IMG/VR virus record: IMGVR_UViG_2711768060_000012 | Location: 1-9,363 of that record | Origin: a virus | Lineage: Duplodnaviria > Heunggongvirae > Uroviricota > Caudoviricetes | Length of the DNA stretch: 9,363 nt | Direction: 5' to 3' (one strand) | Shown here: piece by piece, positions 1 through 9,363 of the stretch | Layout of the letters: the number at the start of each line of letters is the position of its first letter | Numbering within the stretch: the stretch's first letter is position 1 | Made by a program: the position numbers and the translations under genes | Notes under the pieces: model-generated | Seen by the model: the letters and a program-made list of their open reading frames with translations, nothing else | Databases searched by the model: none | Told to the model about the DNA's origin: nothing

Positions 1-1218
1 ATGAACAAACTGAGCGACACATTGTTAAGAAAACTTCATGGTAAGCCGGCGGAGAAAAATACGTTTTATAGTGATGGCGGAAATCTGAGCGTGAAATATT
101 TAACATCAGGGAAATTGACCTGGTATTTCACTTACAGGGCAGGAACGGGAAGAGGTACGCCACCGGAACGCCTGAAGCTGGGAAATTATCCTGATCTGAG
201 CCTGAAAGCAGCCAGGGAAAAAGCAGCACTGTGTCGCGCATGGCTGGCAGAGGGAAAAAATCCACGCCATGAGCTTAATTACTCCATACAGGAAGCACTA
301 AAGCCGGTAACGGTAGGCGATGCGATCAGCTACTGGCTGGAAATGCACGTAAAGGAAAACCGTGTCGATTACGTATGCCTGAAAAGCCGCCTTAATAATC
401 ACGTCATACAGCACATCGGCAATATGCCACTGGATAAATGCGAGTTACGTCACTGGCTGGCCTGTTTTGACCGGATACGCAAAAAATCACCCGTAACATC
501 TGGCCACATGATGCAGGCGTGCAAACAGGCGCTTAAGTTCTGCCGTAAACGTCGCTACGCAGTCAGTAACGTTCTGGATGATCTCAACGTGGTGGACGTT
601 GGCAAAAAGCCGGGCATAAGCGAACGCGTGCTTAGTAACAAAGAACTGGGCGAATTATTACAGGCGCTGGATAAAAAAATATTCCCGCCCTACTACAGCG
701 CACTAATCCGCCTCCTGATTGTGTTCGGCTGCCGGACCGGAGAACTGAGACTGTCGGAGATCAGGGAGTGGGATTTTAAGGAAATGCTCTGGACAGTACC
801 GAAGGAGCACAGCAAAACGAAGGTCGCCATATTCAGGCCAATACCGGAAAGCATTTTACCGTTCGTCACACAGCTGGTGGAGCAGAACCGACACACAGGG
901 CTATTACTCGGGGAACTGAAACAGGAAGCCAGCGTGTCGCAATACGGCAGATTCACGCACAAAAAATTAAACCATCCGCACTGGTCACTACACGATATAC
1001 GGCGCACGTTTACCACGATGCTGAACGATTTAGGCGTGGATCCGCATATTGTCGAGCAGCTTACCGCTCACCAGATGCCAGGGATGCAGCGAGTCTATAA
1101 CCACTCACGCTATATTGATGCGAAACGTAACGCGCTGGATATGTGGACAGAGCGATTAGAGATACTGGCGGGTGCTCACGAAAACGTAACCACACTGCCA
1201 ATAGCCAGAGAAATATAA
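1..1218 (+). CDS. int: Tyrosine site-specific integrase, P4-type
   Basis: 405-aa ORF. N-terminus (KLTWYFTYRAG...LKLGNYPDLSLKAAREKA) and C-terminus (HDIRRTFTTMLNDLGVDPHIVEQLTAHQ...VYNHSRY) match the P4/CP4-57 integrase pattern, including the HxxR and catalytic Tyr region. Confidence 0.9.
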   Translation: MNKLSDTLLRKLHGKPAEKNTFYSDGGNLSVKYLTSGKLTWYFTYRAGTGRGTPPERLKLGNYPDLSLKAAREKAALCRAWLAEGKNPRHELNYSIQEALKPVTVGDAISYWLEMHVKENRVDYVCLKSRLNNHVIQHIGNMPLDKCELRHWLACFDRIRKKSPVTSGHMMQACKQALKFCRKRRYAVSNVLDDLNVVDVGKKPGISERVLSNKELGELLQALDKKIFPPYYSALIRLLIVFGCRTGELRLSEIREWDFKEMLWTVPKEHSKTKVAIFRPIPESILPFVTQLVEQNRHTGLLLGELKQEASVSQYGRFTHKKLNHPHWSLHDIRRTFTTMLNDLGVDPHIVEQLTAHQMPGMQRVYNHSRYIDAKRNALDMWTERLEILAGAHENVTTLPIAREI

Positions 1219-1244
1219 TTTTTTTCGCGATTTTTCAGGACGTA

Positions 1245-1360
1245 CACAACGTGGAACAACGAGACACAACGACGAACAACGGCGAACAATCTGAAACAAA
1301 TCTGATTATCTATGATTATTTCTGATTAACTCCATATAAGTCTGATTTTCTGGTGATTTA
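1245..1360. repeat. Two 10-bp-phased direct repeat arrays: (A/C)ACAAC x6 (about 1246-1295) then TCTGATT-like x5 (1301-1359)
   Basis: ACAAC pentamers at 1246, 1256, 1266, 1276, 1286(ACAAT) and 1295; TCTGATT/TATGATT/GGTGATT at 1301, 1311, 1321, 1341 and 1353. Strict helical-turn spacing, immediately downstream of the int stop. Confidence 0.6.
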
Positions 1361-1594
1361 CTGTTTTTTTGTACATTGGCGAATCACTCTTAAAAATATG
1401 TAAAAAAGGTGTGAATGTAGAATTTTATGCCTTTGCATCACAATGAATTAAAAGAGTTTTTATTCTCATTACCCCACTTCTGTAAAATGACCGCCGCCAG
1501 TGTTTGCCATTCCATAAACACCCTGACACAATCCGACGCACCACAACACAATAGGACACCAAATAACTCTTTAAGAAATATCAAAGGGGGAATT

Positions 1595-1783
1595 GTGTTA
1601 AGCACAGATCGCTTTATACGTGAAAAAGAATGTCAGCAACTAACAGGCCTGAGCCGTTCATGTCGGTACCGCCTGGAAAAGGCCGGACAATTCCCATCAC
1701 GGCGTAAACTCGGCGGTCGTTCCGTTGGCTGGTCTTTATCCGAAGTTCTGGCATGGAAGGACAGCTGCGAGGCAGTTCACTAA
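1595..1783 (+). CDS. alpA: AlpA-family transcriptional regulator (phage/island activator, MerR-like HTH)
   Basis: The C-terminal 62 codons of track ORF 1427-1783 (VLSTDRFIREKECQQLTGLSRSCRYRLEKAGQFPSRRKLGGRSVGWSLSEVLAWKDS) resemble E. coli AlpA. GTG at 1595 is preceded by AAAGGGGG (1583-1590). The exact start is uncertain and could be an upstream in-frame ATG. Confidence 0.75.
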   Translation: MLSTDRFIREKECQQLTGLSRSCRYRLEKAGQFPSRRKLGGRSVGWSLSEVLAWKDSCEAVH

Positions 1784-1924
1784 TCAGACTGGCGGCATAC
1801 AGCCGCCCCCCATCCACTAACACAGAGATTTAACCATGAAGGCTGGATATACGCCCGAACAGGGGCGGGGGTTCGCTCGTCCTGGTGAAACTAAAAAGCC
1901 ATGTTATCGGGTATTTTCAGGCAT

Positions 1925-1952
1925 AAAAAAAGCGGCCCCGATAAGGAGCCGC
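1925..1952 (-). terminator. Intrinsic terminator, minus-strand oriented
   Basis: On the minus strand GCGGCUCC-UUAUC-GGGGCCGC forms an 8-bp stem (one G-U) followed by U7. The + strand version has a C/A mismatch and no U tract. Confidence 0.55.
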
Positions 1953-1996
1953 CTTTCTGAACAATTAACCTGCTGCACAAAAAATAAATATGAGCA
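1926..1996 (-). ncRNA. Candidate small RNA (~70 nt) between an extended -10 promoter and an intrinsic terminator
   Basis: Minus-strand TGaTATAAT (complement of + 2002-2010), then about 70 nt of U-rich sequence with a CUGCU/AGCAG hairpin, ending in the 1925-1952 terminator. No ORF with an RBS in the interval. Prediction only. Confidence 0.3.
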
Positions 1997-2001
1997 GTGG
2001 G

Positions 2002-2010
2002 ATTATATCA
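2002..2010 (-). promoter_or_regulatory. Extended -10 promoter element (TGnTATAAT) on the minus strand
   Basis: + strand ATTATATCA is the reverse complement of TGATATAAT. The -35 is weak (TTGTGG at non-optimal spacing). Confidence 0.35.
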
Positions 2011-2045
2011 GCCAGGTGACGAAGCGCCACAATTGCCGGATAACA

Positions 2046-2076
2046 GGCAAAACAAAGGCCACCCGCTACGGTGGCC
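2046..2076 (-). terminator. Intrinsic terminator for the leftward RHH-like gene
   Basis: Minus-strand GGCCACC-GUAGCG-GGUGGCC (7-bp stem) followed by UUUGUUUU, about 100 nt downstream of the stop at 2180. Confidence 0.55.
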
Positions 2077-2179
2077 CCTCGACACAAGCTACACGTTATC
2101 CACAACGCAAGAGAGCTGATTACTATGCCGTGATTACATCCGGTTGGCAATGTGATCAGTGTGCTGGCTTGCTGGTGGG

Positions 2180-2359
2180 CTATTCCTGCTCTTTGGCCTT
2201 GCGCCGCTGGCGGCGTTTGATCTCACCACGCATGGCTGTAACGATAAACTGCGCGTCTGTTTCGTTTTCCTCTTTGACCAAATTCATTTCGCTTAAAACT
2301 TCTAGAGGGATTCTAGCCGTTTTTTGTTGTGATTTGTTGTTGGTTGTACCCGTTGGCAT
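2180..2359 (-). CDS. Small basic DNA-binding protein, possibly ribbon-helix-helix fold (59 aa); candidate island regulator
   Basis: Internal ATG (complement of 2357-2359) of track ORF 2180-2536, preceded by a perfect SD AAGGAGG with 6-nt spacer. Product MPTGTTNNKSQQKTARIPLEVLSEMNLVKEENETDAQFIVTAMRGEIKRRQRRKAKEQE has a beta-strand/helix/helix layout and a basic tail. Candidate -10 TATACT at complement of 2391-2396. Confidence 0.55.
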   Translation of the reverse strand: MPTGTTNNKSQQKTARIPLEVLSEMNLVKEENETDAQFIVTAMRGEIKRRQRRKAKEQE

Positions 2360-2400
2360 TACTGGCCTCCTTACTGTTAGGTGGCGTTCAGTATACGTAG

Positions 2401-2471
2401 AAAAAAAAATAAAAAAAGGCTTGAAGTGCAAGTCACCTAAAAGTAGCATAACCTTTAAAGGTGACTTGCAC
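2401..2471. promoter_or_regulatory. A9TA7 tract plus 13-bp perfect inverted repeat (GTGCAAGTCACCT ... AGGTGACTTGCAC, arms 2426-2438 and 2459-2471); operator and/or minus-strand terminator
   Basis: Arms are exact reverse complements separated by 20 bp that contain the palindrome CCTTTAAAGG. On the minus strand the hairpin is followed by a long U tract. On the + strand it overlaps a candidate promoter (-35 TTGAAG 2421-2426, -10 TAGCAT 2444-2449) for the rightward operon. Confidence 0.5.
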
Positions 2472-2552
2472 CTTAAAGACAAAGCCCCGCAAGTGTCGTT
2501 ACCACTCGCAGGGCTTCTAACCACCAACGATAGCAAGATTATCGAGGCAGCT

Positions 2553-2756
2553 ATGAGAAATCATACCACACACCCGCAAGGGCGGGACTCGCACAACCTG
2601 AATAAATACATCTGGCGTTTTATCGCCCTGAGCACGGCACAACCGCGCGTGATTACCATTGAGGCCACCAGCGAACAGGAAGCACGCCAGCAATCCCCGG
2701 CTGGCTGCGTGATGGTATTCGCCGCCCGTATTCGTCAGGAGGTGCGCCATGATTAA
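2553..2756 (+). CDS. Small protein resembling Icd-like host cell division inhibitor family (67 aa)
   Basis: Last 67 codons of track ORF 1836-2756. ATG at 2553 is preceded by GAGG (2544-2547). KYIWRFIALSTAQPRVITIEATSEQEARQ...VFAARIRQ matches my recollection of Icd-like proteins in P4-like islands. The upstream part of the 306-aa ORF looks non-coding. Confidence 0.55.
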   Translation: MRNHTTHPQGRDSHNLNKYIWRFIALSTAQPRVITIEATSEQEARQQSPAGCVMVFAARIRQEVRHD

Positions 2757-2961
2757 TCTGTCACTTACCGACCTTAACCGCGTTCAGTTTCGTGAGAAAT
2801 TCACCGGGCAGCTACTGGTCAATGTGGAGAATGGACGCGTGGTGTGTAATTACCACCTGCCAGATGAATCAATTGTCGCAACAAGGGAATCATTACAGGA
2901 ACTCGCAGAACATGCCGGAATGATTAACGCGAATATTCAGGGGGTGCGCCATGTGCAATAA
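2749..2961 (+). CDS. Hypothetical protein (70 aa)
   Basis: ATG at 2749 is preceded by AGGAGG (2737-2742) and overlaps the upstream stop (translational coupling). No family recognised. Confidence 0.6.
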   Translation: MINLSLTDLNRVQFREKFTGQLLVNVENGRVVCNYHLPDESIVATRESLQELAEHAGMINANIQGVRHVQ

Positions 2962-3418
2962 CACCCATCCGGACGCAGCCGCCGAAGCTATCAAAACACT
3001 GATTGATGCGCTGATTGATATTTCTGTTATCGCGGACAGGGCGCATAAGCACGCCACCAGCGAAACAGAATATGCCGGGGCTTTCGTTCCTCACTCACTG
3101 GCTGTTATGCAGCTTAGCGCCGATATGGCGCTGAATGGGGCTAAAGCAATCCTGATTGCTGATTGTGAAAATGGGGGGGGGGTTATGCGTGATGATCGTT
3201 TTAATGCCCTGAAACAGGAATTTGATGGCGCACCGGAAGATACAGATATTGCGCTGTTATGTGTTGCTGACATGGTAAAAGCTGCATGTTTTTTACTGGA
3301 AACCGCCGAACATTCAGGAACGGGTAGCGATATTCTCAATATTGCGTCGGACTATGCGGAATATGTGGCAGAGGCACGTTACAGAAGAAAATTACCGGAG
3401 GATGTAAGCCATGGATAA
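2951..3418 (+). CDS. Hypothetical acidic protein (155 aa, about 26 D/E versus 12 K/R) containing an in-frame G10 tract
   Basis: ATG at 2951 overlaps the upstream stop. Coherent protein-like sequence on both sides of the G10 run at 3173-3182 (encodes ENGGGV). No family recognised. Confidence 0.65.
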   Translation: MCNNTHPDAAAEAIKTLIDALIDISVIADRAHKHATSETEYAGAFVPHSLAVMQLSADMALNGAKAILIADCENGGGVMRDDRFNALKQEFDGAPEDTDIALLCVADMVKAACFLLETAEHSGTGSDILNIASDYAEYVAEARYRRKLPEDVSHG

Positions 3419-3619
3419 AATCCCTTTCGATGTTCTTATTCATTCTGAGAATGCATTAATCAGGGCGCTTGAATTAAAAACGGTACTGGATGAATTAACC
3501 GAAAATAACACCGAGCGGGGGGGTATTTACTTTCTGCTTTCAGCACTCTGTTAACCCCGGTTATTGATGAATTAAACGCGGTTATGGAAATGCACGACAA
3601 GACCCGCGCAGAGGAATAA
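3411..3619 (+). pseudogene. Small gene (69 codons if corrected) interrupted by a frameshift at a G7 tract (3517-3523)
   Basis: ATG at 3411 with GGAGGA (3397-3402) opens MDKIPFDVLIHSENALIRALELKTVLDELTENNTERGG..., which stops at 3555. The -1/+2 frame opens right after a stop at 3506-3508 and continues YLLSAFSTLLTPVIDELNAVMEMHDKTRAEE to a stop at 3617-3619, just before the next gene. One extra G would fuse the two frames. Confidence 0.45.
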
Positions 3620-3624
3620 AAACC

Positions 3625-3924
3625 ATGAAAAAGAAAATTTCTGGCTTTACTGCCAGCGGCCCCGCTCGGCCTGAAATCCGCCCCGGCGATATTTTCCGGG
3701 ATAACTACGGCGGCACGGTAACGATTAAAAGCGTGGCGGGACGGTGCGTTACTTACCGCCGTGATGGGTACGGCTATGACTGCGTGATGCCTGTTTATCA
3801 GTTCCGGCGTGATTTTTCGCTGGTACAGGCCACACCACGCAGACAGCCCACCAGCAACGCAAAGGCACGGGCAAATATTCAGAAAATGAAAAACATGATT
3901 AACGCATTCAGGGGCACAAAATGA
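3625..3924 (+). CDS. Hypothetical small protein (99 aa), possibly a DUF4222-like prophage protein
   Basis: ATG at 3625 is preceded by GAGGAA. Stop overlaps the helicase start (ATGA at 3921). The IRPGDIFRDNYGGTVTIKSV...RDGYGYDCVMPV motif is tentatively recalled from small prophage proteins. Confidence 0.6.
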   Translation: MKKKISGFTASGPARPEIRPGDIFRDNYGGTVTIKSVAGRCVTYRRDGYGYDCVMPVYQFRRDFSLVQATPRRQPTSNAKARANIQKMKNMINAFRGTK

Positions 3925-5336
3925 AACTGGCACCGAACTTAAAAAAACAGCCACACGACAAAATGACCGAAGTCATTATTTTTGCGGGTAGTGATGCCTG
4001 GGCGCACGCGAAACAATGGCAGGAACAGGACGGGCGACTTGCTGGCGACAACGTGCCACCTGTATGGCTTGGAGACAGCCAGCTTGACGAACTGGCAGAC
4101 CTGAAAATCATCGATGATGGTCGCTATTGTGTCCGGCTGTACAAGGCAGGCCACATCAAGCCGTCAAATATTAATGCCATCGGGCAAAAGCTGGCGGCGG
4201 CAGGTGTACGGGATGCGAATTATTACCCTGAGGGAATGCACAGCCAGAAGCTGGAGAACTGGCACGACTACCTGCAACGGATCCGCGAACAGACAGAGCG
4301 CGGGGAAATACTTACTGACGAGCAATACAGCCAGCGAAAAACCACGCTACCAATGAGCATTGGATCTGCAGGGTACGACACACAGCTTGATTATGTCGTT
4401 AAGGGCGTGATTCCGGCTAATTCATTGTGCAGCACATACGGCGCGAGCGGTTCCTATAAATCGTTCCTCGCGTGTTCCTGGGCGTGTCATGTTGCCACGG
4501 GTCGCCACTGGGGAGGCCGCAGGGTGGCGCATGGTTCGGTGATGTATGTTGTCGGTGAAGGTGGCATTGGTGTCCCCCGCCGTATCAAAGCATGGGAAAT
4601 CGTTAATGATGAACGGGTGGAAAATCTGTACTTGGTAAACCGCCCGATTTTTCCGGCAGTTCCGCTTGATGTCGATGAAATGGTCATCGCTTCCCGCCAG
4701 GTTGAACGGGAAACGGGTAAACCGGTACGCATGATTATTCTGGATACGCTGGCGCGTTGCTTTGGCGGTAATGATGAAAATGACGCGCGGGATATGGGGG
4801 CGTTTATCCGTGGATGTGACGAACTGAAGCGACGCACAGGGGCCACGGTACTGGTGGTTCACCATTCCGGCAAGGATGAAACAAAGGGGGCGCGTGGTTC
4901 CAGTGCATTTCGTGCATCTCTGGACGCTGAATACCGTATTCGCCGGGAAGGTGCAGACAGTGAAGCCCTGGTTATCTCCTGTACCAAAATGAAGGACGCG
5001 GAGGAACTTAAAGAGGCTGCATACGATTTACGCGTGGTGGAGCTTTTTACCGACGCTGACAAGGAGTTAATCACGTCGCTGGTGGTTGTGGATAAGCCGC
5101 GCCCACCTGTTGAACTGGAACGCATCGAGGAAGCCGGGAACAAGACGGAGAATCATGCCGCGCTATGGGGCTGTATCCGTTCACGCACACAGCGCAGCGA
5201 TAAATGCACTATCCCGTTGTTGCGCGATGATATGAAAAAGCTGGGGTATGAGATGAAAAACTTCCGGCGCTGGCTGTACAAGCTGGAAAGAGACGGCGTT
5301 ATCGCTATTGACGGTGATGATGTGCGCCCACTGTAA
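3921..5336 (+). CDS. Replication protein: RepA-like / AAA_25 RecA-fold helicase with an N-terminal domain of unknown type
   Basis: 471-aa ORF. P-loop-like GASGSYKS (4440-4463), Walker B-like VRMIILDTLARCFGG, and LVVHHSGKD typical of RepA/DnaB-type helicases. Followed by an iteron array. Confidence 0.8.
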   Translation: MKLAPNLKKQPHDKMTEVIIFAGSDAWAHAKQWQEQDGRLAGDNVPPVWLGDSQLDELADLKIIDDGRYCVRLYKAGHIKPSNINAIGQKLAAAGVRDANYYPEGMHSQKLENWHDYLQRIREQTERGEILTDEQYSQRKTTLPMSIGSAGYDTQLDYVVKGVIPANSLCSTYGASGSYKSFLACSWACHVATGRHWGGRRVAHGSVMYVVGEGGIGVPRRIKAWEIVNDERVENLYLVNRPIFPAVPLDVDEMVIASRQVERETGKPVRMIILDTLARCFGGNDENDARDMGAFIRGCDELKRRTGATVLVVHHSGKDETKGARGSSAFRASLDAEYRIRREGADSEALVISCTKMKDAEELKEAAYDLRVVELFTDADKELITSLVVVDKPRPPVELERIEEAGNKTENHAALWGCIRSRTQRSDKCTIPLLRDDMKKLGYEMKNFRRWLYKLERDGVIAIDGDDVRPL

Positions 5337-5535
5337 AAAGTGAGGCGCAAAAGTGAGGGGATAGCAGGAACTGAACAAAAAGCAACCGCACCCCTCACTT
5401 TTCAACCTGTATATAGGCTCAAAAGTGAGGAATAAAAAACACATTGAAAAACAACATATTAGAATCACAAAAAAACAATGTTGGAAATCATGTGGGGAGC
5501 TTAAAAAGTGAGGTGAAAAAGTGGGGAATAGTGAG
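5336..5535. repeat. Iteron array, likely replication origin: AAAAGTGAGG repeated 5-6 times with an AT-rich core
   Basis: AAAAGTGAGG at 5336-5345, 5349-5358, 5421-5430 and 5504-5513; degenerate copy 5517-5526; inverted copy CCTCACTTTT at 5393-5402. AT-rich stretch 5431-5490. Directly downstream of the helicase gene. Confidence 0.6.
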
Positions 5536-5537
5536 AA

Positions 5538-5789
5538 ATGACCAGAAAAACCAGAGATAAGACAGCGCCAAAATATCGCGCATTAGACATGACAGAGCAC
5601 GCCTTAAAGGTGGCAATCAGAACGATAGACCGCCATGCCGGAGAAGGATACGCGAAAGCACATCCCGAACTGATAAGCGCATTCATGACCACAGCGGCGG
5701 CAAACTTTGCCACGCTGACAGAGCGGGAGATTGCGGAAGCGGAACAGGTGACAACCATCAACGTTAAAACCGGAGAGCAGACAGCATGA
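5538..5789 (+). CDS. Hypothetical protein (83 aa)
   Basis: ORF with a weak RBS. Stop overlaps the SSB start (ATGA at 5786), suggesting coupling. No family recognised. Confidence 0.5.
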   Translation: MTRKTRDKTAPKYRALDMTEHALKVAIRTIDRHAGEGYAKAHPELISAFMTTAAANFATLTEREIAEAEQVTTINVKTGEQTA

Positions 5790-6208
5790 CAGCACAGATA
5801 GCGGCTTACGGTCGGCTGGTGGCTGACCCTCAGTTAAAGACCACCAGCAAAGGGACACAAATGGCGATGGCGAGTATGGCGGTTCCCCTGCCGTGCAGCC
5901 AGGCAGATGACGGAACGGCGACGATGTGGTTATCCGTCCTGGCGTTTGGCAGACAGGCCGACGCACTGGCAAAACACCACAAAGGCGAACTGGTGAGCGT
6001 GGCGGGTAACATGCAGGTAAGCCAGTGGACAGGCCAGAACGGCGAAGCGCGGCAGGGCTGGCAGGTTATCGCAGACAGCGTAATCAGTGCGCGAACGGTG
6101 CGACCGGGCGGCAAAAAAGGCCAGCAGGGCCAGGCTACTGACGCACTGAACAGGGCAAAACAACAGGCGGGAAATGATGATCCGTACGGGGATAACATAC
6201 CGTTTTAA
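5786..6208 (+). CDS. ssb: Single-stranded DNA-binding protein (SSB, OB-fold)
   Basis: 140 aa. N-terminal OB-fold-like region, Gly/Gln-rich linker (GGKKGQQGQ) and acidic C-terminal tip ...DDPYGDNIPF, resembling the SSB DDDIPF tail. Confidence 0.8.
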   Translation: MTAQIAAYGRLVADPQLKTTSKGTQMAMASMAVPLPCSQADDGTATMWLSVLAFGRQADALAKHHKGELVSVAGNMQVSQWTGQNGEARQGWQVIADSVISARTVRPGGKKGQQGQATDALNRAKQQAGNDDPYGDNIPF

Positions 6209-6224
6209 GCAACGAGTGACAGAA

Positions 6225-6248
6225 GCCGGGGTTTTTCCCGGTTTTTTT
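6225..6248 (+). terminator. Intrinsic terminator after ssb
   Basis: CCGGG-GTTTTT-CCCGG hairpin (6226-6241) followed by T7 (6242-6248). Confidence 0.6.
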
Positions 6249-6295
6249 ATGGGTCCTTCCTGAAAAATGGAACACCGGGGGGATGCGGACGCGCA
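6242..6295 (+). repeat. 54-bp direct repeat, copy 1 (TTTTTTTATGGGTCCTTCCTGAAAAATGGAACACCGGGGGGATGCGGACGCGCA)
   Basis: Identical to 8713-8766. Starts at the T tract of the ssb terminator. Confidence 0.9.
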
Positions 6296-6476
6296 GAAAA
6301 CGGCTGGTTTTTGCATTTTCATGGTGGCGGCAGCATGTGTGATAATTAATTGATAATTAAAAATTATTTCTGTTTTCACCTGTACAATCTTTTTTCTCCC
6401 CCTGTCATCAGACCAGTTTGCAATTAATTGAAATATATAAACAAATTTGTTTTTCACCTGCCAAATGGAGCTGCCT

Positions 6477-6572
6477 ATGTCAAATGTGATTGGGATTGGT
6501 GATGCTTATCACTGGCACACAAAAATGAATATTGCATATTTTGCAATGCAATTGATCATCATTGCATTTTGA
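6477..6572 (+). CDS. Candidate 31-codon small ORF / leader peptide (MSNVIGIGDAYHWHTKMNIAYFAMQLIIIAF)
   Basis: ATG at 6477 is preceded by GGAG (6467-6470). Hydrophobic C-terminus. Overlaps the dyad-rich control region and could equally be non-coding. Confidence 0.2.
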   Translation: MSNVIGIGDAYHWHTKMNIAYFAMQLIIIAF

Positions 6573-6616
6573 TCAACACTGCACACTTCAAATATCAGTC
6601 TGAAACGAGGTGTTAC

Positions 6617-6820
6617 GTGAACGAAAAGAAAGCTGTATCGGTTTATCTCGACAATGAAACGGCGCTTGCCCTGTACCGTTTGCGCGAAGATATTCGCAAG
6701 AAAAATGCAGAAACGGGAATGGATCTTCCCACGCCAACAGTCGGCTGGCTTGCCCGTTCATTGTTGCGTCAAAGCCTGGGAATTAAGGCAGACAAAAAAG
6801 ATTTGCCTCATGAGGGGTAA
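6617..6820 (+). CDS. Small ribbon-helix-helix-like protein (67 aa) upstream of the capsid gene
   Basis: GTG at 6617 is preceded by GAGG (6607-6610) inside track ORF 6569-6820. KAVSVYLDNETALALYRLREDIRKK fits the RHH pattern of a beta-strand followed by a helix. Confidence 0.5.
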   Translation: MNEKKAVSVYLDNETALALYRLREDIRKKNAETGMDLPTPTVGWLARSLLRQSLGIKADKKDLPHEG

Positions 6821-6825
6821 GGTTG

Positions 6826-8667
6826 ATGGAAATTTCATTGTATGAGCCAATCGAAGGCGTAACCGCAAGACAGTTCCGCGATTCACTTATGGCTGCAAAA
6901 GGCCCGGTTACGGTTGCCATAAACAGCGGTGGCGGAAATGTAACTGACGGCATGGCGATGTTTAACGCCCTGAGAACGTACAAAGGCCACACGGTCGCAA
7001 GAATCGACGGTATCGCCGCATCAATGGCTACCATTGTTGCGCTCGGTGCCCGGCGTGTCGTGATGGCTGATAACGGCTGGTGGATGATCCATAACCCGTG
7101 GGGCGTTTTTGTTGGTGAATCGGAAGATCTCCGCAAAAAAGCCGACATGATGGAAAAAATCGGCAAGGCAATGCTTGATACCTACGTTGCCAAAACCGGA
7201 TTACCGGAATCAGAAATCAAAGCCATGATGGATGCTGAAACATGGCTGACGGCTGAGGAAGCGAAAGAAAAAGGATTTATTGATGAAATTTATCCGGCAG
7301 AGGGACAGGCATTAGCCATGGCCCCTGGTTGCGGATCACTGGTAGAGAAATTTACCAGAACGCCGGAAAGCATCATCGCATCGATGAAGAAAGGCGACAC
7401 GGGATCAGCAAACGAAAGAGAGAAGCGAAAAAAAGAAGCCGACGTTTTGTTTGCTTACTGGAAGAATTCTTCGTATGAGTGGTTGCCAGGAATTGTTGAA
7501 GAATTTATCAGCGGTTCCATCACTGCCGAAGAAGCACGTAAAAAACACTTAGAAAAACTGGCGGAAGAGACAACGCCGTGCGCAGGACCAGGAGCAATGA
7601 ACATGTATGCAGGTAACGGTAATATTGTTGGGGATTCAGTAAAAGCGGCGCTTATGGCACGCAGTGGACTGGCAGATGTGGAAAAAGATAACCGCTATAA
7701 CGGTTATTCATTGCGGGAACTGGCGCGCGCTTCTCTGGTGGATCGTGGGGTAAGCGGCATTCCCGGTAATCCGCTGGGCATGGTCGGAATGGCGTTTACT
7801 CACAGCAGTAGTGATTTTGGCGGCGTTCTTGCGGATGTGGCGCATAAATCATTACTGAAAGGCTGGGAAGATTCACCGGAGACGTTCCACGCCTGGACGA
7901 AAAAAGGCACTCTGACAGATTTTAAGGTTGCCCATCGTGTTGGTATGGATGGTTTTAAATCTTTGCGAAAAGTTTTACCAGGCAGTGAATACAAATACGC
8001 GTCCACGTCCGATCGCAGCGAGCCAATTGCACTGGCAACTTATGGCGAACTGTTCAGCATAGATCGCCAGGCAATCATCAATGACGATATGAGTGCGCTA
8101 ACTTCAATCCCCCAGCAAATGGGGGCAGCAGCAAGCCGCACAGTCGGAGATCTGGTTTATGCCGTTCTCGTGGCTAATCAGAGGATGGGCGATAAAAACC
8201 CGCTCTTTGATGCGAAACACAGCAATCTGATTAACAGCGAACTTGATATTCCAGGCCTGAGCGCAGCCCGTAAAGCTATGCGTATGCAAAAAAATAATGC
8301 TGGTGCTGTACTGAATATTCCGCCTCGTTTCCTGTTAGTTCCGGTAGAACTGGAAGACAGAGCAACCCAGCTTATTCGTTCTACGTCGCTACCAGACGCG
8401 CAGAACAGCGGTGTGTTTAATCCATACAATGATGCTCTGACAGTAATCACAGAAGCGCGGCTGGATGCCGACAGCGTGAAATCCTGGTATCTGCTTGCTG
8501 GTCAGGGAAGTGATACAATCGAAGTCGCTTATCTCGATGGTATTGATACCCCGTACCTGGAACAGCAGCAGGGCTTTACGGTTGATGGCGTTACTTTCAA
8601 AGTGCGCATTGATGCCGGAGTTTCTCCCCTGGACTGGCGCGGGATGGTTAAGTCATCAGGTGGCTAA
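6826..8667 (+). CDS. Prohead protease (ClpP/S14-like) fused to major capsid protein (HK97-fold)
   Basis: N-terminus AINSGGGNVTDGMAMFNALRTYKGHTVARIDGIAASMATIVALGARRVVMADNGWWMIHNPWG has ClpP-like Ser/His motifs. The long C-terminal domain resembles HK97-family capsid proteins. ATG at 6826; the track start at 6823 is TTG. Confidence 0.8.
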   Translation: MEISLYEPIEGVTARQFRDSLMAAKGPVTVAINSGGGNVTDGMAMFNALRTYKGHTVARIDGIAASMATIVALGARRVVMADNGWWMIHNPWGVFVGESEDLRKKADMMEKIGKAMLDTYVAKTGLPESEIKAMMDAETWLTAEEAKEKGFIDEIYPAEGQALAMAPGCGSLVEKFTRTPESIIASMKKGDTGSANEREKRKKEADVLFAYWKNSSYEWLPGIVEEFISGSITAEEARKKHLEKLAEETTPCAGPGAMNMYAGNGNIVGDSVKAALMARSGLADVEKDNRYNGYSLRELARASLVDRGVSGIPGNPLGMVGMAFTHSSSDFGGVLADVAHKSLLKGWEDSPETFHAWTKKGTLTDFKVAHRVGMDGFKSLRKVLPGSEYKYASTSDRSEPIALATYGELFSIDRQAIINDDMSALTSIPQQMGAAASRTVGDLVYAVLVANQRMGDKNPLFDAKHSNLINSELDIPGLSAARKAMRMQKNNAGAVLNIPPRFLLVPVELEDRATQLIRSTSLPDAQNSGVFNPYNDALTVITEARLDADSVKSWYLLAGQGSDTIEVAYLDGIDTPYLEQQQGFTVDGVTFKVRIDAGVSPLDWRGMVKSSGG

Positions 8668-8688
8668 TACACAATCAGGCATGTTATG

Positions 8689-8720
8689 TTTTTTTTGCGG
8701 CCTTCGGGCCGCTTTTTTTA
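8689..8720. terminator. Bidirectional intrinsic terminator after the capsid gene
   Basis: T8 - GCGGCC-TTCG-GGCCGC - T7: perfect 6-bp GC stem with a tetraloop, flanked by T tracts on both sides. Confidence 0.65.
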
Positions 8721-8766
8721 TGGGTCCTTCCTGAAAAATGGAACACCGGGGGGATGCGGACGCGCA
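8713..8766 (+). repeat. 54-bp direct repeat, copy 2
   Basis: Perfect match to 6242-6295. Starts at the T tract of the capsid terminator. Confidence 0.9.
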
Positions 8767-8880
8767 TAAATCGAGAGATTTTTGATATTTTATGCGTGCA
8801 GCAGCATAAGTTTAATGCTTTGATTTTTAACATTATTGATTTGTTTTGTTGAAAAAGCGACCGTGCAGTGAGGTGGTAAA

Positions 8881-9363
8881 GTGGAACTGAGCAAAATGCA
8901 GGTTAATGTCTCACAATTGGCAGACCTGGTAGGCATGAATCGAAATCTTGTTTCACGCCGTTTGCGTGAGCTGGAGCTTGTTGGCGGGAATGGTGAGAAT
9001 CTTAAATTGTATGAACTCGGTCCGGCACTTCAGGCACTACTGACCCCATCAATGAAAGAAAATGGTGAAATGTCACCACAGGATCGGAAAGCCTGGTATC
9101 AGTCAGAAAATGAAAGGCTGAAATTTGAAGCAGCTTCACGTGAATTACTCCCTGTCGAAGAGGTGGCCCGTGAATATTCATCTCTGGCTAAAGCCGTGGT
9201 CATGGTGCTGGAAACGTTACCGGATATTCTTGAGCGCGATTGCGCTCTCCAGCCTTCTGCAGTCATGCGAGTACAACGCATTATTGATGATCTACGTGAT
9301 GAAATGGCGAGAAAGATAGCAGAAAGCGATTCAGATAATGGCTGGCCTGCATGTGCAAGATGA
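8881..9363 (+). CDS. Terminase small subunit, lambda Nu1-like
   Basis: MQVNVSQLADLVGMNRNLVSRRLRELEL...NLKLYELGPALQAL parallels the Nu1 N-terminal wHTH (VNKKQLADIFGASIRTIQNWQEQGMP...NEVLYDSAAVIKWY). Start is either GTG 8881 (GAGGTGG upstream) or ATG 8896. Stop coincides with the window end. Confidence 0.75.
   Translation: MELSKMQVNVSQLADLVGMNRNLVSRRLRELELVGGNGENLKLYELGPALQALLTPSMKENGEMSPQDRKAWYQSENERLKFEAASRELLPVEEVAREYSSLAKAVVMVLETLPDILERDCALQPSAVMRVQRIIDDLRDEMARKIAESDSDNGWPACAR

Follow-up and report, generated by a model that had tools for sequence, protein, structure and literature searches.

A poly-G tract of variable length splits a small gene upstream of the replication genes in a phage satellite of Escherichia

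A small gene split at a G tract

The DNA considered here is a stretch of 9,363 nucleotides from the IMG/VR record IMGVR_UViG_2711768060_000012 (positions 1 to 9,363; hereafter the window), which by its gene content represents the left-hand portion of an integrative phage satellite of Escherichia. A small gene on its plus strand (3411-3619) is split between two reading frames at a run of seven guanines (G7). We consider it likely that this locus is a slipped-strand hotspot in a satellite of the phage-inducible chromosomal island (PICI) or capsid-forming PICI (cfPICI) type, and that the copy in the window is in the OFF state. The uninterrupted G run, which encodes Gly-Gly, would gain and lose G's by slipped-strand mispairing in DNA replication, and the gene would drift between one in-frame state (G5, G8 or G11) and two out-of-frame states. 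The G7 of the window would be a common natural OFF allele, one G below the most frequent ON allele, G8.

The original prediction held that a single gene, well initiated and ending beside the next gene, is broken at the G run and that one more G would restore a protein of 69 amino acids (aa). Direct reading and translation of the sequence bear out this layout in all its coordinates. A Shine-Dalgarno motif, GGAGGA (3397-3402, plus strand), stands 8 nt before the start codon ATG (3411-3413), which overlaps the stop of the upstream open reading frame, or ORF (ATGGATAA; TAA at 3416-3418). As it stands, the ORF of 47 aa that begins there (3411-3554, plus strand) passes the G7 tract (3517-3523, plus strand), which is the frameshift site and encodes part of R36 together with G37 and G38, and it stops at TAA 3552-3554, 70 nt before the next gene. 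Its product is made up of the first helix, the Gly-Gly pair and a 9-residue out-of-frame tail, IYFLLSALC. The downstream half lies in the -1 frame (3509-3619, plus strand), which opens after a TAA at 3506-3508, 8 nt before the G run, reads HRAGGYLLSAFSTLLTPVIDELNAVMEMHDKTRAEE and ends at TAA 3617-3619. In the restored frame the gene ends 5 nt before the start (ATG 3625) of a gene for a DUF4222 protein.

Conceptual translation with one added G gives the 69-aa fusion MDKIPFDVLIHSENALIRALELKTVLDELTENNTERGGYLLSAFSTLLTPVIDELNAVMEMHDKTRAEE, which is identical to the annotated coding sequence (CDS) WP_169000751.1 in strains JP538 and ETEC4085, and also to the protein P0077, present on 164 contigs by exact look-up. 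Orthologues with eight G's encode exactly the protein that had been predicted. Base composition alone leads one to expect 0.66 runs of at least seven G's in the window, and a G7 is unremarkable as such; we regard the feature as real because the run lies exactly at the junction of the frames and because of the evidence from homologues, not because of the length of the run. Two separate genes at the locus were considered as well, and this arrangement was never seen in homologues: they contain no pairs of separate short ORFs, and the protein sequence of the downstream frame is conserved. The downstream half was also rejected as an independent gene, as no ATG, GTG or TTG lies near the tract and the first ATG is found 16 codons before the stop.

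Homologues and predicted fold

The tract-bearing gene occurs in 17 places in 15 complete E. coli genomes, and the source names of homologues give a taxonomic range of E. coli, E. albertii, Shigella and Salmonella. An alignment of orthologues, which the original prediction had proposed as a check, yielded the expected G8 alleles with a fused ORF: five copies carried G6, G7, G7, G8 and G8 and were near-identical in the rest, and the G8 copies are annotated as 69-aa CDSs equal to the fusion of the window. Protein searches returned full-length forms of 68, 69 and 70 aa, with one, two and three glycines, as well as truncated forms of 46-52 aa. A tract-free subfamily of 75 aa, with ~50% identity, aligned over both halves and was much more abundant (P0039 on 485 contigs and P0050 on 246). 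In the downstream half, the residues A43, T46, L47, L48, P50, V51, I52, E54 and L55 are invariant in this alignment.

Residues 1-66 of the fused product match phrog_2196 (E 1.5e-8). The G8 form P0001, which is 99% identical to the conceptual fusion, covers positions 1-71 of the 74 in this profile, and the 75-aa relative matches it with E 1.4e-10; the truncated 47-aa product alone had no PHROG match. An exhaustive profile search found just 14 representatives, and each of the distant full-length relatives (77-84 aa) is encoded by a single ORF and has a variable acidic loop at the position of the glycines. Because the tract-free subfamily, phrog_2196 and the distant relatives all span both halves, comparison of the sequences establishes the small gene as a single ORF by ancestry. 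Searches of the small protein against Pfam, NCBIfam and PADLOC gave no match, and phrog_2196, the sole PHROG match, is itself without an assigned function. Scans of species-representative genomes with a protein pattern and a degenerate DNA pattern returned only a chance match in a metagenome-assembled genome of Sphingobacteriaceae.

The small protein is predicted to be a helical hairpin of ~69 aa. In the AlphaFold2 model (mean predicted local distance difference test score 86), a helix at residues 6-32 is followed by a turn at 33-35 and a second helix at 36-68, and Foldseek found generic helical hairpins only in the PDB, at E values of at least 0.8. The tract-encoded glycines form the first turn of helix 2 in this model, beside the inter-helix turn, and the family alignment has its greatest variability and its indels at the same position. 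That one to three glycines are tolerated is explained by the position of the tract-encoded residues at the start of helix 2, directly after the turn.

In another group of elements (loci L032-L039), the slot that corresponds to 3411-3619 of the window is found at 3796-3996 and is occupied by an unrelated gene of 66 aa (MHNHESHLPVVLNV...), with the same sequences at its junctions. This gene has a T8 run that is invariant in 8 of 8 loci. The DUF4222 protein encoded by these elements is identical to that of the window by exact look-up. Because an identical DUF4222 neighbour is accompanied by an unrelated gene, the slot between the upstream gene and DUF4222 behaves as an exchangeable cassette.

Variation of the tract length

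The length of the tract was read in 31 unselected loci. Complete E. coli genomes (15 in number) supplied 16 of these loci, IMG/VR contigs 7 and metagenome contigs 8. G5 was present in four of the 31, G6 in two, G7 in seven, G8 and G9 in eight each and G10 in two, so that the gene is in frame in 12 loci and frameshifted in 19. The lengths G4 and G13 were verified in the DNA of two short-read-derived contigs that had been fetched by their predicted products, and the natural range is G4-G13 overall. With G5, G8 and G11 the gene is in frame and its products have 68, 69 and 70 aa, respectively; the other lengths give products of 46-53 aa.

Exact look-ups of the predicted products provided contig counts for each length on two backbones, of which backbone A is window-like. 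On backbone A, G8 was found on 164 contigs, G6 on 99, G7 (the allele of the window) on 88, G9 on 42, G11 on 6, G10 on 5, and G4 and G13 on 1 each, with no entry for G5 and G12. On backbone B, the counts were 140 for G8, 128 for G7, 67 for G9, 41 for G5, 38 for G10, 7 for G6, 3 for G4, 2 for G11 and 1 for G12, with no entry for G13. The exact 47-aa product of the window, on its 88 contigs, appeared in 179 index blocks and in many different mosaic contexts.

The tract changes far faster than point substitutions occur, because its length differs between copies with identical flanks. Outside the tracts, ten locus pairs showed no mismatch in 680-850 nt; four of these ten differed in the small-gene tract and a fifth differed in a second tract upstream, which is described below. 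The pairs L027/L031 and L031/L045 represent the same two copies in one genome, that of strain ETEC4090, and were counted once. The independent comparisons that differ in the small-gene tract therefore number three, namely L008/L030, L013/L017 and the two ETEC4090 copies. The tract had no interruption in 43 of 45 loci, the exceptions being L012 and L018 with CTGGGGG, and in all 45, ON or OFF, both halves were free of stops and frameshifts outside the tract. The 37-nt exact anchor with which the loci were collected sits within the downstream half, where only the last 15 codons and the stop could vary.

Both the length variation among copies with identical flanks and the presence of OFF alleles in the two alternative frames are thus established at the level of DNA sequence. 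One ON frame, two OFF frames and length polymorphism are the signature of slipped-strand mispairing. The locus also has the sequence attributes of a contingency locus: the repeat lies inside an ORF, the number of its units is polymorphic, and the gene toggles between ON and OFF with the rest of it intact. We infer that the switching is reversible and fast enough for phase variation. In the OFF state, 70 nt would be left untranslated ahead of the DUF4222 and RepA-helicase genes, and the expression of these two genes may be lowered via lost translational coupling or polarity. A trace of the full-length protein may still arise from G7 through low-level slippage on the G run.

The two backbones differ at 18 of 57 nt over 3459-3515 (codons 17-35, with 8 nonsynonymous and 5 synonymous codons). 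On either side of this patch they are identical or almost identical, over the first 48 nt of the gene and over ~95 nt after the tract. The difference might be either a recombination patch or a local diversification of the end of helix 1.

A second tract in the upstream gene

A second poly-G tract, a G10 (3173-3182, plus strand), lies inside the ORF at 2951-3418, 340 nt upstream of the G7. Runs of at least ten G's are expected ~0.01 times in the window, as computed from the G frequency. The second tract ranged from G6 to G10 in 52 loci, with a mode of G8. In 60 complete E. coli genomes, taken as a spread sample, the start of the alignments points to lengths between about G4 and G10. Both tracts of the window are off their modal length.

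With G7 or G10 the upstream gene is fused (154 or 155 aa, phrog_2512), and with G8 or G9 it is split into an ORF of 79 or 86 aa and another of 77 aa. The window has the fused state of 155 aa (2951-3418, plus strand). The PHROGs reflect the same alternatives: the whole gene product corresponds to phrog_2512, its N half to phrog_5146 and its C half to phrog_24341. Homologues are annotated in the split as well as in the fused form, and fused clusters of 154/155 aa exist. The internal 77-aa ORF GGGGGGGGGGTTATGCGTGA (3185-3418, plus strand) has its ATG 2 nt after the tract and is a separate CDS in most homologous loci. Its position suggests that the second G run probably doubles as a Shine-Dalgarno-like, ribosome-binding element for this ORF. 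To judge from the aligned loci, the second run is a variable poly-G tract that behaves like that of the small gene.

Discussion

Slipped-strand mispairing would explain how the small gene came to be split, and it leaves the question of whether the switching is adaptive. We rate the chance that it is, and that this is a true contingency locus, at somewhat below even; otherwise it would be a tolerated hotspot of mutation, in a gene on which selection acts weakly or only from time to time. A role is favoured by the fact that G8, an ON length, is the most frequent single allele on both backbones, and by the local peak at G5, another ON length, on backbone B (41 contigs compared with 3 and 7 for its neighbours). 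Moreover, E. coli, E. albertii and Salmonella have all kept an uninterrupted run, as have both of the diverged backbones.

Several points weigh against such a role. The in-frame fraction in unselected DNA, 12 of 31, does not differ from the neutral expectation of one third. A figure of 42% in frame is obtained from protein counts (353 of 833), and it is inflated by gene calling and clonal sampling; gene callers often skip ORFs of 47-52 aa, and several OFF loci have no CDS annotated by the Prokaryotic Genome Annotation Pipeline (PGAP). Five clonal derivatives of strain 2020S05-013 all appear to have G7 at the upstream tract, as read from the start of the BLAST alignment, and since they appear to share one length, the switching rate is probably moderate rather than extreme. 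The absence of other lesions is a weak test, given a short gene, highly similar copies and an anchor placed in the downstream half. Finally, because the small protein has no functional match, no benefit of switching can be named.

If these points are taken further, the small gene would be a plain pseudogene, dispensable and decaying, in which the G run is merely the first break point and the switching has no biological role. This was one of the options that the original prediction had listed, and we hold it to be unlikely. In its favour, the 19 of 31 unselected copies out of frame match random frame occupancy, the slot is filled by an unrelated 66-aa gene in other elements, meaning that the small gene is not universally needed, and PGAP leaves several OFF copies unannotated. 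However, a decaying gene is difficult to reconcile with the 45 loci, where lesions of tract length are the only ones seen, or with the persistence of an uninterrupted tract on two diverged backbones and in three taxa, E. coli, E. albertii and Salmonella. The prominence of G8 on both backbones and of G5 on backbone B also argues against decay, and every OFF allele is only one or two slippage steps from an ON length, such that inactivation is not permanent.

The original prediction had offered two further options, and neither has held up well. One is that the G7 of the window is an error of sequencing or assembly at a homopolymer and that the true sequence is G8. Homopolymers are classic sites of indel errors in long-read assemblies and G8 is the commonest allele, but the product of the window's own allele is present on 88 contigs in many mosaic contexts, and the contigs of short-read metagenomes (SPAdes NODE) and of Logan contain G4, G5, G7, G9, G10 and G13, a spread too wide for consensus errors. 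Because of these two observations, a natural G7 allele certainly exists. The breadth of the variation and its presence in short-read assemblies exclude sequencing error as the general cause and make it very unlikely for the window itself.

The other is slippage in expression. In programmed recoding, the ribosome would slip -1 on G_GGG_GGU, or RNA polymerase would add a G, and the split arrangement would be a design for making both a 47-aa and a 69-aa product; we find this the least credible of the explanations, since OFF alleles occur in both wrong frames, many relatives are in frame or tract-free, and a stimulator is missing. Known genes with programmed -1 frameshifts or transcriptional slippage include dnaX, those of IS3-family transposases, the phage tail chaperone G/GT and the Thermus dnaX with its A9 run, and the RNA polymerase of E. 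coli slips mainly on A/T runs. The small gene is similar to them in that two overlapping frames are joined at a slippery homopolymer, and the run, read in the zero frame, resembles an X_XXY_YYZ heptamer (G GGG GGT), from which recoding on G7 would be expected to give the trans-frame peptide ...ERGGYLLSAFSTLLTPVIDELNAVMEMHDK. However, programmed genes conserve the slippery site, the frame relationship and the stimulator, and the small gene conserves none of them. Its two-frame layout is replaced in homologues by an in-frame gene (G5, G8, G11 or no tract), the state of most relatives, or by the other wrong frame (G6, G9), for which the opposite shift would be needed. RNA folding of 3500-3625 revealed no stimulatory element after the G run; the z-score of the fold was 0.55 against shuffled sequences, and the sole local hairpin includes the G run itself. 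Neither a conserved heptamer in a conserved two-frame architecture nor a stimulator, as would be expected of a programmed -1 frameshift, was therefore found. Programmed transcriptional slippage is characterized by a conserved run of ~9 A or T and a conserved out-of-frame arrangement, and the published analysis covers only such runs (PMC1088944), whereas the tract here consists of G's and varies in length.

Low-level frameshifting that is not programmed is another matter. It has been documented on the G7 run of the herpes simplex virus (HSV) thymidine kinase gene, where a 'savior' indel in the G7/G8 run is compensated in this way (PMC5009743), and a trace of the full-length product is plausible here also. 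The two cases are alike in that a G7-type run is a hotspot of single-G indels, and out-of-frame alleles of the HSV gene can yield trace active protein. They are unlike in that HSV is a eukaryotic virus under drug selection.

With DNA slippage as the preferred explanation, the closest parallels are the homopolymeric-tract contingency genes of bacteria, such as the poly-G genes hmbR and hpuAB in Neisseria, the surface-structure genes of Campylobacter jejuni and rmpA in Klebsiella. The small gene resembles such simple sequence repeat (SSR) genes in having a G run in the ORF whose length is polymorphic among near-identical strains, with one ON and two OFF frames and the rest intact. It differs from them in that it is borne by a satellite and encodes what is predicted to be a small, cytoplasmic-looking helical hairpin rather than a surface structure. 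Its host is also a mismatch-repair-proficient Escherichia, in which phase variation by SSRs is, to our knowledge, uncommon.

Loci of this kind have also been reported in phages. Poly-G tracts are present in the receptor-binding proteins of Campylobacter Fletchervirus, and SSR 'contingency loci' have been described in the coliphages T2 and T4 (10.1101/2025.10.21.683753). As in those phages, homopolymer runs in a mobile element of viral type would produce frameshifted subpopulations, for which the proposed logic is bet-hedging. However, Fletchervirus, T2 and T4 are lytic and have their own polymerases, and the phenotypes of their loci are known (receptor use and defence evasion), whereas the element in the window is an integrated satellite that relies, most of the time, on the host replisome for its replication, with tracts in genes of the early operon. 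By analogy, then, the mechanism would be one already known from bacterial homopolymer contingency genes and from the poly-G/SSR loci of phages, and the novelty would lie in the satellite setting; none of the papers that our searches retrieved describes such tracts in a phage satellite or in members of this gene family.

It is tempting to regard both poly-G tracts (3173-3182 and 3517-3523) as genuine contingency loci that stochastically toggle two small proteins of the early operon, and possibly DUF4222 and the RepA helicase via translational coupling. This wider proposal is tentative, and we think it rather unlikely as a whole. If it were true, a population of lysogens would always hold satellites in different expression states and could hedge between readiness for replication and transfer on the one hand and cost or interference with the helper on the other. 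As far as we found in the literature, no contingency locus would have been described before in a phage satellite, here one of a mismatch-repair-proficient enterobacterium. Should the switching have consequences, contingency loci would be in use by satellites as well as by bacteria and phages, and a stochastic switch just upstream of the replication genes of PICIs and cfPICIs would affect the reproducibility of island induction and transfer.

There is also a consequence for annotation. In RefSeq the number of G's alone decides whether the locus is called as a protein of 69 aa, as one of 47-52 aa or not at all, and the upstream gene is likewise annotated as one protein of 154/155 aa or as two. 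The split ORF is best treated as one gene with a homopolymer of variable length, instead of being dropped or called a 47-aa hypothetical protein.

Genomic context

The window begins with an integrase gene (1-1218), followed by a gene for an AlpA-type regulator (1427-1783), an ORF with an Icd-like C-terminus (1836-2756) and a small ORF of 70 aa (2749-2961). The upstream gene and the split small gene (3411-3619, plus strand; phrog_2196 family) come next, and then the DUF4222 gene (3625-3924, plus strand; Pfam PF13973, E 1.2e-24) and the gene of a replicative helicase of the RepA family (AAA_25; 3921-5336, plus strand; Pfam PF13481, E 3.5e-44), the homologues of which are annotated as 'helicase RepA family protein'. 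Beyond these lie genes for SSB (5786-6208) and for a fusion of ClpP protease and capsid (6823-8667), and a small terminase gene from 8881 onwards; the window ends at 9363.

The genes at 2749-5336 overlap or abut each other. The Shine-Dalgarno sequence of DUF4222, GAGGAA (3611-3616), sits within the final codons of the small gene, and the start of the helicase gene overlaps the stop of DUF4222 (ATGA). A scan for promoters and terminators gave matches at chance level only, with nothing credible between these genes. Because the genes overlap or abut and are not separated by a credible promoter or terminator, 2749-5336 looks like one translationally coupled operon. An ORF of 164 aa on the minus strand (3460-3954), antisense to the small gene and DUF4222, had no PHROG or family match and was treated as spurious. 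Rfam and tRNA scans of the window returned no matches.

The element is a phage satellite of the PICI/cfPICI type. The integrase-proximal module in the SatelliteFinder definition (PMC10085698) is present, with an integrase, an AlpA-type regulator and a RepA/AAA_25 helicase. The same source defines the cfPICI set as capsid, portal, head-tail adaptor and connector, TerS and TerL, without tail or holin genes (PMC10085698). From the packaging set, the window has the ClpP-protease/capsid fusion and the small terminase, and it ends before the portal/TerL region, so that the window alone does not separate a PICI from a cfPICI. A homologous element in E. coli 2014C-3075 contains capsid, protease, portal, connector, HNH, TerS and TerL genes and no tail or lysis genes, and this fits the cfPICI description (PMC10085698).

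The cfPICI of E. coli 2014C-3075 (L052; NZ_CP027447.1, 1375634-1400083) is flanked on its two sides by the halves of a disrupted large-terminase gene, in a prophage that encodes Stx1d. This insertion site implies that the satellite has integrated into a packaging gene of its potential helper. Relatives of the island are found inside Shiga-toxin prophages.

The ORF at 1836-2756, of 306 aa, contains an A9-T-A7 run (2401-2417), and only its residues 258-301 are recognisable, as Icd-like. In related loci this region is annotated with a short Icd-like gene and minus-strand genes, and the long ORF may not be real.

Directly after the RepA helicase gene, at 5337-5526, an A/T-rich stretch is flanked by AAAGTGRGG motifs, which number six where chance alone would give 0.16. 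These motifs are probably iterons of the replication origin of the satellite.

The window also contains a 99-nt direct repeat with 85% identity (6238-6336 and 8709-8807), which has no Rfam match. Both copies start at the T-run of a terminator-like hairpin, after which comes a conserved stretch of ~50 nt, ATGGGTCCTTCCTGAAAAATGGAACACCGGGGGGATGCGGACGCGCA. As one copy is located before the capsid genes and the other before the terminase gene, the repeat may be a repeated late regulatory region.

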